Positions 39,887 to 41,311 of a stretch of 64,000 bases of DNA are shown one piece after another. The position numbers and the translations under genes were made by a program. How positions within the stretch are numbered: the first letter of the stretch is position 1; every line of letters starts with the position of its first letter. The stretch is taken from the NCBI RefSeq assembly GCF_016026235.1, contig NZ_CP065613.1; one strand, written 5' to 3'. The notes under the pieces are model-generated. The model searched no databases and was not told the DNA's origin. It saw only the letters and a list, made by a program, of their open reading frames with translations. The DNA is from Escherichia coli (lineage in GTDB: Bacteria > Pseudomonadota > Gammaproteobacteria > Enterobacterales > Enterobacteriaceae).

Positions 39887-39906
39887 GTTTTTGCCAGGAC
39901 TACAAA

Positions 39907-40086
39907 TTGAACGATAAGACGTTTGATTTTACCAGTGAGCGCGATTTTGTGAGTCGCGCTCATTGCGTAGGTCTAAACCCTCAAGCCACTCTACAGTGGA
40001 ATGAAGTAAACGAGGATGCCATCTCGGCATTAAATGAACTTGCAGAAGAAACAGGATGTTTCTCTGATGAGTACCGGAAGTTTTAA
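39907..40086 (+). other. Short ORF or C-terminal gene fragment (59 codons from TTG; frame open upstream into folA)
   Basis: Reads ..TFDFTSERDFVSRAHCVGLNPQATLQWNEVNEDAISALNELAEETGCFSDEYRKF; no ATG start; not in the ORF track because it is under 60 aa. Confidence 0.25.
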
Positions 40087-40184
40087 GTTTTTAAACTCTG
40101 CTATTTCTGTAAAGAGGTCAGAATGTTGAGTATCTGCTAAATACTTACTTTTTGGTCTATCGTCTGGCGATGTATTTTGGATTG

Positions 40185-40652
40185 TTACAGATCACATCGT
40201 AGTTGAATAACATCAGCAAAGTGTTTTTTGAATAACCGAATCCAGGTTTGGTCATCAAAAACATCACCGATGATGTCAGGAATTTCAATTATTCGAAGAT
40301 CATCAGGACTCGAAAGTAGCAGTTCAAGCAATTCTTTAGTGGGTAACTTCTGGGCGTAGGGAATAGTTTCTGGCGGGTAAAGCTGCTTAAGTTGTTGCCA
40401 AATATCAATGAGTTGGGTCGTTTTACTTTCTGTTATCCATACATCGTCAGCCATCCTGGTTATGTTCATTATTGACTGCTGAGAGACAGAACAGAAGAAG
40501 CCGTAGTCGACTGCAATGCTGATGCAATCACATAGAAAAGCGATTCGCCTGCGATACCAGGTCCGCTGCTCAGCAAATGGGGGTTCATCTGCTTCGTCAA
40601 TCATTGCCAGAATAATTTCTCTGGTATTAAGCCCGCTGTTGATTTCTCGCAC
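40185..40652 (-). CDS. Hypothetical protein (islet gene B, up to 155 aa)
   Basis: ORF about 33% GC at its 3' end, co-oriented with and 35 nt downstream of islet gene A; GTG start at 40652 with internal ATG alternatives; no recognised motif. Confidence 0.5.
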   Translation of the reverse strand: MREINSGLNTREIILAMIDEADEPPFAEQRTWYRRRIAFLCDCISIAVDYGFFCSVSQQSIMNITRMADDVWITESKTTQLIDIWQQLKQLYPPETIPYAQKLPTKELLELLLSSPDDLRIIEIPDIIGDVFDDQTWIRLFKKHFADVIQLRCDL

Positions 40653-40687
40653 TTAGATATTTTCCGCTAAATAGGCGCGTATTTGTC

Positions 40688-41287
40688 TCAGGAATTTTTC
40701 ATTCCCAAAGCCTTTCTCGCAGCTGCACTAACAGGGTAAATTTTTTCTGGCGGCAGGAAGGATTTCGCCTGTGTTGTTTTGCCGTTTATCAAAAGGTTAT
40801 GACACTTTCGCACCAGCGGCGTCAGATCATCAATGGCAACAATCGCGTCTTCGTTAAATTGACTGATCAAGTTACGAGAAATACCAAGCTGTAATGATCG
40901 GTGCTCCAGTTTTTTACCATTTATGCTGCGTTCTGGATCCCACTGAACATACACATTTGCTTGTGCAAATAACGTTTCCCAAATTCCTGCATGTGGATAG
41001 ACATGGGCTTCCGGCGTGGTTAGCACCGATTGTTCCAGCAATGTATCAAAGAAGGTGCGTTTGATTCGGATTGCGAGAATGCGTTGTTGATCTTTTTTCA
41101 GTCCCCAGTTGCTACGCTCCATCATCCACATAAAAGAGGGTTTAATCCAGGTCATGCGGTTGAATGAAAAAGGTGCGCCAAATCGCCCGTTACGTACGGC
41201 GACGTCAGCGATTGCATCATTGTAAGCCTGATAAACCGTGATGGTGTGCTGATTGTAATCAGCACGTATTTCAAAATAGTCAGCCAT
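40688..41287 (-). CDS. Hypothetical protein (islet gene A, 199 aa)
   Basis: ATG preceded by strong Shine-Dalgarno (cagggaggaata ATG); starts 24 nt after the apaH stop on the same strand; no recognised catalytic motif. Confidence 0.6.
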   Translation of the reverse strand: MADYFEIRADYNQHTITVYQAYNDAIADVAVRNGRFGAPFSFNRMTWIKPSFMWMMERSNWGLKKDQQRILAIRIKRTFFDTLLEQSVLTTPEAHVYPHAGIWETLFAQANVYVQWDPERSINGKKLEHRSLQLGISRNLISQFNEDAIVAIDDLTPLVRKCHNLLINGKTTQAKSFLPPEKIYPVSAAARKALGMKNS

Positions 41288-41311
41288 TATTCCTCCCTGA
41301 ATGGTAATTAG

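Follow-up and report, generated by a model that had tools for sequence, protein, structure and literature searches.

A DUF4291 gene with a predicted ADP-ribosyltransferase fold in an accessory islet at the folA–apaH hotspot of Escherichia coli

The spacer between folA and apaH is a known plasticity hotspot and the home of the ccdO157 toxin–antitoxin (TA) system in Escherichia coli O157:H7 (PMC7167474, PMC7232551, PMC3184786). Insertions at this site can be compared with two further kinds of described protein. RhsP2 is a T6SS-delivered ADP-ribosyltransferase (ART) that ADP-ribosylates the 2′-OH of RNA and has the immunity protein RhsI2; its catalytic triad is R-Y-E, and the E1576Q variant is inactive (PMC12340436). 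DUF4291 was proposed in 2025 to be an atypical ART-like family, characterized by the motifs QA[YF], WIK, and [AS]IQ (PMC12522546).

The stretch of DNA analyzed here, termed the window, comprises 64,000 nucleotides of an E. coli chromosome in which the gene order is kefC-folA-[islet]-apaH-apaG-rsmA. The gap between folA and apaH is 1,425 bp (39887–41311), against exactly 77 bp in K-12; the first-pass annotation of the window had put these at about 1.4 kb and about 77 bp, and the islet is indeed absent from K-12. Several folA–apaH variants are said to have been described by Mine et al. in 2009 (Genetics 181:1557). The islet has a GC content of 0.428, compared with 0.522 for the whole window, and is composed of a ccdA-like ORF and two genes denoted A and B, an arrangement that is present and annotated in other genomes. 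The features are:

39407–39886, plus strand: folA, dihydrofolate reductase, the left core flank (the ORF translation is FolA, as in the RefSeq annotation of a 99.9%-identical locus)
39907–40086, plus strand: decayed ccdA relic of 59 codons (from the RefSeq/PGAP call in the 99.9%-identical strain FDAARGOS_943 and alignments to a ccdAB allele)
40087–40184: non-coding spacer, on which the ccdA relic and gene B converge with their 3′ ends
40185–40652, minus strand: gene B, 155 amino acids, GTG start
40653–40687: spacer of 35 nt between genes A and B, with an in-frame TAA directly before the GTG of gene B
40688–41287, minus strand: gene A, 199 amino acids, ATG start
41288–41311, minus strand: spacer of 24 nt between apaH and gene A, with the Shine–Dalgarno sequence GGGAGGA at 41291–41297
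41312–42160, minus strand: apaH, diadenosine tetraphosphatase, the right core flank

The coordinates, lengths, and shared orientation of genes A and B, the two short spacers, and the strong Shine–Dalgarno sequence all agree with the first-pass annotation, which described a two-gene islet and placed both ORFs correctly but overlooked the third part, the ccdA-like ORF. At the left flank, the ORF list extends folA through 39272–39406 to 204 amino acids, a listing artefact, given that the annotated FolA has 159 amino acids from 39407. Genes A and B are not chance ORFs, as indicated by the same annotated arrangement in 536 E. coli genomes and other Escherichia, and by their dN/dS values. The Shine–Dalgarno sequence of gene A lies 5 nt upstream of its ATG, and a terminator scan found none between apaH and gene A. 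With its 24-nt spacer, gene A is thus probably read through from the apaH operon, a co-transcription that we infer from the layout. Elsewhere in the islet, promoter and terminator scanning gave no signal above shuffle expectation; the 40087–40184 spacer contains no convincing terminator by scan and folds no better than its shuffles (z −0.79). An Rfam search returned no RNA family, only a single sub-threshold SRP match (E 0.77), and the islet showed neither tRNA-like RNA nor transposon features. No direct or inverted repeats were found to flank it, and it thus bears no mark of a transposon or integron-type element.

Taken together, the islet is somewhat better than evenly likely to encode an accessory enzyme that acts in NAD/ADP-ribose chemistry and may have a binding partner, carried as a recombination-mobile cassette at a known hotspot. 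The evidence for each part, and the readings that compete with it, are considered below.

The plus-strand ORF shares its insertion site with ccdO157, the chromosomal ccdAB of E. coli O157:H7. PGAP annotates 39949–40086 as a CcdA family antitoxin, and PF07362 is recorded for the corresponding ORF at another locus (L025). Its protein is 56% identical to CcdA-O157, and the CcdB-binding C-terminal segment is still recognizable (…ETGCFSDEYRKF). Unlike ccdO157, it has no adjacent ccdB, and alignment to a ccdAB allele shows 14 internal codons to be missing from the DNA-binding half at the N-terminus, together with loss of the ATG, the Shine–Dalgarno sequence, and the ~76 nt upstream that hold the promoter/operator region. 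One E. coli allele (L017) carries an internal stop, and dN/dS for the ORF is 0.43, over few sites. The islet therefore holds no intact ccdAB system, in the sense of a ccdA with promoter/operator and an adjacent ccdB. Because the start, the promoter, and 14 codons are gone and one allele has a stop codon, the ORF is, judging from these alignments, a dead remnant of an earlier insertion by a separate and divergent ccd lineage rather than a working TA system.

Gene A is a full-length member of DUF4291 (PF14124), matching model positions 1–180 of 180 in the Pfam HMM with an E-value of 2.3e-68 and a score of 230. The first-pass annotation had recognized no motif in either gene and had proposed profile HMM searches and structure prediction for both; the lack of a motif stands for gene B, which matches no Pfam, NCBIfam, or PADLOC family, but not for gene A. 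The DUF4291 motifs are present as Q19-A20-Y21, W46-I47-K48, and S130-L131-Q132, the third having Leu in place of Ile. In a 40-sequence alignment, Q19, W46, I47, K48, and Q132 are invariant, as are many Arg and Lys residues, and gene A keeps every invariant residue of the family. The protein is basic, with a pI of 9.5, and this together with the many invariant Arg/Lys residues suggests a phosphate-rich substrate. Gene A is intact in all alleles compared for selection; these diverge by 6% at synonymous sites and give a dN/dS of 0.12.

The predicted structure of gene A has the ADP-ribosyltransferase core, a split beta-sheet NAD-binding domain. The canonical ART triad, either H-Y-E or R-S-E, is not present, as there is no conserved Glu on the strand formed by residues 125–135, in agreement with the published description of DUF4291 (PMC12522546). 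On this strand, the fifth of the core and the one where ARTs carry their catalytic Glu, gene A has the invariant Gln132. From the secondary structure of the model and the published assignment, Gln132 would occupy the catalytic position. The closest structural relative of the predicted fold is the C-terminal toxin of RhsP2 (PDB 7RT7), with which gene A shares 10% sequence identity and no sequence-level match. Gene A differs from RhsP2 in having the invariant Gln132 rather than a conserved Glu on that strand, and in being cytoplasmic and free-standing, without an Rhs or delivery domain. Since the family has no conserved Glu and the corresponding E-to-Q change inactivates RhsP2, canonical ADP-ribosyl transfer by gene A cannot be assumed. 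Sequence and profile searches of the PDB with gene A were empty.

Gene B is an acidic protein (pI 4.6) that is all-helical in its predicted structure. Pfam gave no match for it even at an E-value of 10 and no family at E up to 0.1 for seven members of its family, NCBIfam and PADLOC gave no match, and sequence and profile searches of the PDB returned only noise (oleate hydratase). An exhaustive search found only four family members among 1.8 billion cluster representatives, a profile search for more added none, and among 100,044 species genomes gene B occurs only in Escherichia whittamii and Superficieibacter electus. The B family is thus a tiny, orphan family confined to the folA–apaH locus in a few Enterobacteriaceae.

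The full-length relatives of gene B, a 189-residue protein (P0011) and a 218-residue Superficieibacter protein, have a CxxC...CxxC zinc ribbon at the N-terminus, and their ribosome-binding sites are good. In Escherichia, gene B starts just after the zinc ribbon, at a GTG preceded by the in-frame stop and with only a weak Shine–Dalgarno sequence. By this comparison, the Escherichia gene is N-terminally truncated, with the zinc ribbon and the native start lost. Gene callers place its start differently, PGAP giving 155 or 139 amino acids and the Logan contig caller 94 amino acids from Met62, a disagreement that follows from the absence of a good ribosome-binding site at the GTG. Ten alleles, drawn from at least three species, all keep the frame open, some of them ending six codons early, and dN/dS is about 0.36 overall (0.43 for codons 1–61 and 0.32 for codons 62–155).

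The best predicted-fold match of gene B is the immunity protein SsdAI (PDB 7JTU_B), and the DUF416/YjaG-like structures 3F7C and 2Q9R are also alike. These comparisons use a model of a 56%-identical homologue built from only seven sequences, for which Foldseek gives E-values of 0.3–4 against Imm5 proteins. Identity to SsdAI, DUF416, and Imm5-like proteins is 7–15%, there is no sequence-profile family match, and the full-length B relatives differ from these proteins by having a zinc ribbon in addition at the N-terminus. SsdAI, for its part, is paired with a deaminase toxin rather than with an ART.

Genes A and B are linked and co-oriented in E. coli, E. whittamii, and Escherichia sp. 93.0816, and the two are nearly always found together in E. 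coli genomes, 535 of which have A and 539 B. In Superficieibacter, apaH is followed by A (81% identity) and then by a full-length B relative, denoted B′. Outside these genomes the linkage loosens. In another enterobacterium (L004), with flanks 79% identical to those of E. coli, B′ lies by itself in the folA–apaH gap, another contig (L024) has A at 79% identity followed by an unrelated acidic 175-residue ORFan without a database match, and in all other taxa sampled A occurs without B. The compact pair noted in the first-pass annotation is thus conserved in the Escherichia species and Superficieibacter but is not linked wherever either gene occurs, and the pair is not obligatory. Since practically every islet-bearing E. 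coli has both A and B, as does Superficieibacter, the two may nevertheless be functional partners. The different genes that follow A in Superficieibacter and in L024 point to a high turnover downstream of A.

Several other observations touch on the neighbors of A. Two Logan contigs in which B is broken and A intact (L026, L028) differ from L027, a sister contig of the same allele, only by 1–2-bp indels; these are probably assembly errors, and the two contigs were left out of the argument. Superficieibacter (L008 5801–7178) and L024 (871–2144) both have a PRiA4_ORF3 gene (PF07929) that separates folA from the A-linked gene and is encoded on the opposite strand. In Bacteroidota, the small ORFs after DUF4291 genes were considered as relatives of gene B and rejected by eye, one being macrodomain-like and the other unlike gene B.

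The first-pass annotation had speculated that the islet is a toxin–antitoxin, abortive-infection, or toxin/immunity module. In such a module, A would poison RNA or translation, B would be an Imm5/SsdAI-like inhibitor plugging the active site of A, and the two would have taken the slot of ccdB. The predicted folds give this idea some substance, as the nearest structural relative of A is a genuine lethal toxin and the closest fold relatives of B include an immunity protein. The opposite charges of the two proteins (pI 9.5 and 4.6), their tight linkage in Escherichia species and Superficieibacter, and the hotspot itself fit as well. Against it, B′ occurs alone at the site, A is followed by the ORFan in L024, and A lacks B everywhere sampled outside the folA–apaH locus. 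The putative antidote is also the less conserved and more weakly translated of the two genes, the catalytic strand of A has no conserved Glu, and A is absent from phages and rare on plasmids. Models of defense and TA systems do not recognize the islet. PADLOC, NCBIfam, and PHROG models gave nothing usable for gene A, gene B, the ccdA-like ORF, or their relatives, with the sole PHROG matches being two families of unassigned function at E 0.004–0.009; PADLOC-DB at E up to 1 gave zero families for these genes, the B relatives, and the neighboring genes. We consider a toxin–immunity module unlikely, although it deserves to be weighed. More doubtful still is its most specific form, in which A would be an active RhsP2-like, RNA- or nucleotide-directed ART with a glutamine-based site and B its dedicated inhibitor, making up an unrecognized chromosomal ART TA or abortive-infection module that replaces ccdB and is traded between Escherichia species, O111 EHEC included. 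The separability of A and B, seen in B′ alone and in A with an unrelated ORF, counts instead for A as an accessory enzyme.

The wider DUF4291 family offers a further view of what such an enzyme might do. Relatives of gene A number 7,601 at E below 1e-5, with identities of 81% in Superficieibacter, 68% in Listeria costaricensis, and 55–59% in Chryseobacterium. In Bacteroidota (Chryseobacterium, Prevotella, and related metagenome contigs), DUF4291 genes lie inside large NrtR-headed operons together with NADAR genes (up to two), ADP-ribosylglycohydrolases (up to three), PARG, SIR2, a DarT-like DUF2971, Tpt1, an adenylosuccinate-synthetase-like gene, and several unannotated ORFs. At the Prevotella locus, the ORF directly after the DUF4291 gene is unannotated and macrodomain-like by eye. 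These operons resemble the ADP-ribose-sensing operons that have been discussed as processing or reversing ADP-ribosylation (PMC9503650, PMC11833690), the resemblance being by analogy to those of PMC9503650. In Listeria, a histidine phosphatase lies directly upstream of the DUF4291 gene; in one metagenomic genome the gene has no NAD- or ADP-ribose-related neighbors, and some members are solitary. Gene A had no matches in phages and is rare on plasmids, mostly megaplasmids. These genomic contexts place the family in NAD/ADP-ribose chemistry, and they do not look like those of a typical mobile toxin. Compared with other DUF4291 members, gene A has the same family-level features in an unusual genomic context, standing at the end of the apaH operon and adjoining an orphan helical protein, without the NrtR, NADAR, Macro, ARH, and Tpt1 neighbors of the Bacteroidota type.

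That context raises the question of whether A works with ApaH, as an NAD- or dinucleotide-binding ART-fold enzyme made from the same transcript and acting on Ap4A/Np4A- or NAD-capped RNA or related dinucleotides. Wherever it is found in Enterobacteriaceae, A lies directly after apaH in the same orientation, no terminator separates the two, and binding of a dinucleotide is a property of ART folds. One ancestral placement, at a hotspot open to ccdAB as well, can account for every such case, so they are not independent evidence, and apaH is found in none of the five DUF4291 neighborhoods sampled outside Enterobacteriaceae, nor is it among the common DUF4291 neighbors in a published survey (PMC12522546). 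A partnership with ApaH is highly improbable.

Among 5,426 complete E. coli genomes, the full-length islet is present in 536 and ccdAB occupies the folA–apaH site in 2,025. This comparison of folA–apaH spacing, suggested in the first-pass annotation, leaves the remaining genomes matching neither query, and the listed examples have the short K-12-type spacer. Carriers of the islet include O111:H8 and O111:H11 EHEC, ETEC O6:H16, and bovine isolates, and the islet is also found in E. whittamii and another Escherichia species. Over its 1,425 bp, the islet of the window differs from that of E. whittamii Sa2BVA5 (L013 4324–5748) at only four positions (99.7% identity), whereas the flanking apaH and folA are 90.9% and 92.9% identical, and the density of mismatches climbs within about 150–300 bp on either side of the islet. 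A near-identical islet between flanks that are 7–9% divergent, with mismatches rising at its edges, is the signature of a recent transfer between species through homologous recombination. The allele of the window, which is E. whittamii-like, is rare in E. coli, being matched at 99% identity or more by 14 of the 536 carriers, with the rest at 95.8–97.4%. Within E. coli, the islet has a dS of 0.06–0.09, below the 0.13–0.14 of the neighboring 3′ ends of apaH and folA.

The history of the islet probably extends well beyond this exchange. Gene A of Superficieibacter has ~79% DNA identity to that of E. coli, the level of the flanking core genes, and from this equal divergence A has probably long resided at the folA–apaH site in some Enterobacteriaceae. 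A foreign origin further back in time is suggested by the low GC content and by the closest outside relatives, which are in Listeria and Bacteroidota. The suggestion of horizontal acquisition that the first-pass annotation drew from low GC is borne out by the GC difference and by the near-identity of the islet to that of E. whittamii within its 91–93% identical flanks.

Gene B alone is also found outside the chromosomal site. On the IncFII resistance plasmid of E. coli ESBLEC_HM50, a 516-bp piece of chromosomal DNA (L014 6001–6516, equivalent to window 40134–40649) that is 99.2% identical and holds gene B only sits between IS26 and IS1, with aac(3)-IVa and aph(4)-Ia adjoining. Gene B is matched in three plasmid records, and the fragment is probably an incidental IS-mediated capture.

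Some islets have decayed. In E. coli PSS-04 (L030 1201–2577), gene A is broken by an IS1 into two pseudogene fragments, with B and the ccdA relic left intact, and in E. coli HH97 (L031) what is left is a DUF4291 pseudogene without its N-terminus and part of B. Decay of this kind could be taken to mean that the islet is functionless cargo, the leftovers of successive insertions at a hotspot that hitch-hike and slowly decay as ccdO157 does. The plainly dead ccdA relic, the 5′ truncation of B with respect to its full-length relatives, the decayed and IS-disrupted islets, and the roughly 90% of E. coli that manage without the islet would all be expected of such cargo. The two genes behave otherwise, with A intact at a dN/dS of 0.12 and keeping all invariant residues of its family, and B open in 10 alleles and at least three species with a dN/dS of about 0.36 in both halves. 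The divergence of A in Superficieibacter, which is that of the flanking core genes, also speaks for long maintenance. Cargo without function is a distinctly improbable explanation.

The islet is then best pictured as a three-part mosaic in the folA–apaH hotspot. The plus-strand ORF is the dead leftover of an earlier, divergent ccdAB insertion from which the toxin gene has gone. Gene A is an intact, selectively maintained DUF4291 enzyme with a predicted ART-superfamily fold and a non-canonical site, probably made constitutively by read-through from the rsmA-apaG-apaH operon. It may bind NAD+ or an ADP-ribose-type nucleotide and modify or process a phosphate-rich substrate, which could be RNA, a nucleotide, or perhaps a protein. 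Most likely the cell tolerates it as an accessory enzyme, and it is not a poison that needs an antidote. Gene B, lineage-restricted and with an SsdAI/DUF416-like predicted fold, is probably a protein-binding accessory or modulator, and in Escherichia, where the zinc ribbon and native start are lost, it is under relaxed constraint. Homologous recombination in folA and apaH carries the whole cassette from one Escherichia species to another, and in some lineages the cassette decays.

The islet is a real accessory module, present in about one in ten E. coli strains and swappable. The locus illustrates how a cassette can be exchanged between Escherichia species through flanking homology, and genome surveys should leave the ccdA relic out of their counts of TA systems. 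If A and B were a toxin/inhibitor pair after all, an addiction module would have given way to a second one at a fixed hotspot. The DUF4291 family of bacteria and fungi is very large, with over 7,600 relatives in the present search and about 5,000 according to the literature, and gene A of E. coli offers a tractable route to its first experimental test, being a small single gene in a tractable host with isogenic natural alleles available (empty site, ccdAB, and islet) and a candidate partner next door. Should gene A prove active, it would reveal what gene A modifies and whether the canonical Glu is dispensable for an ART.
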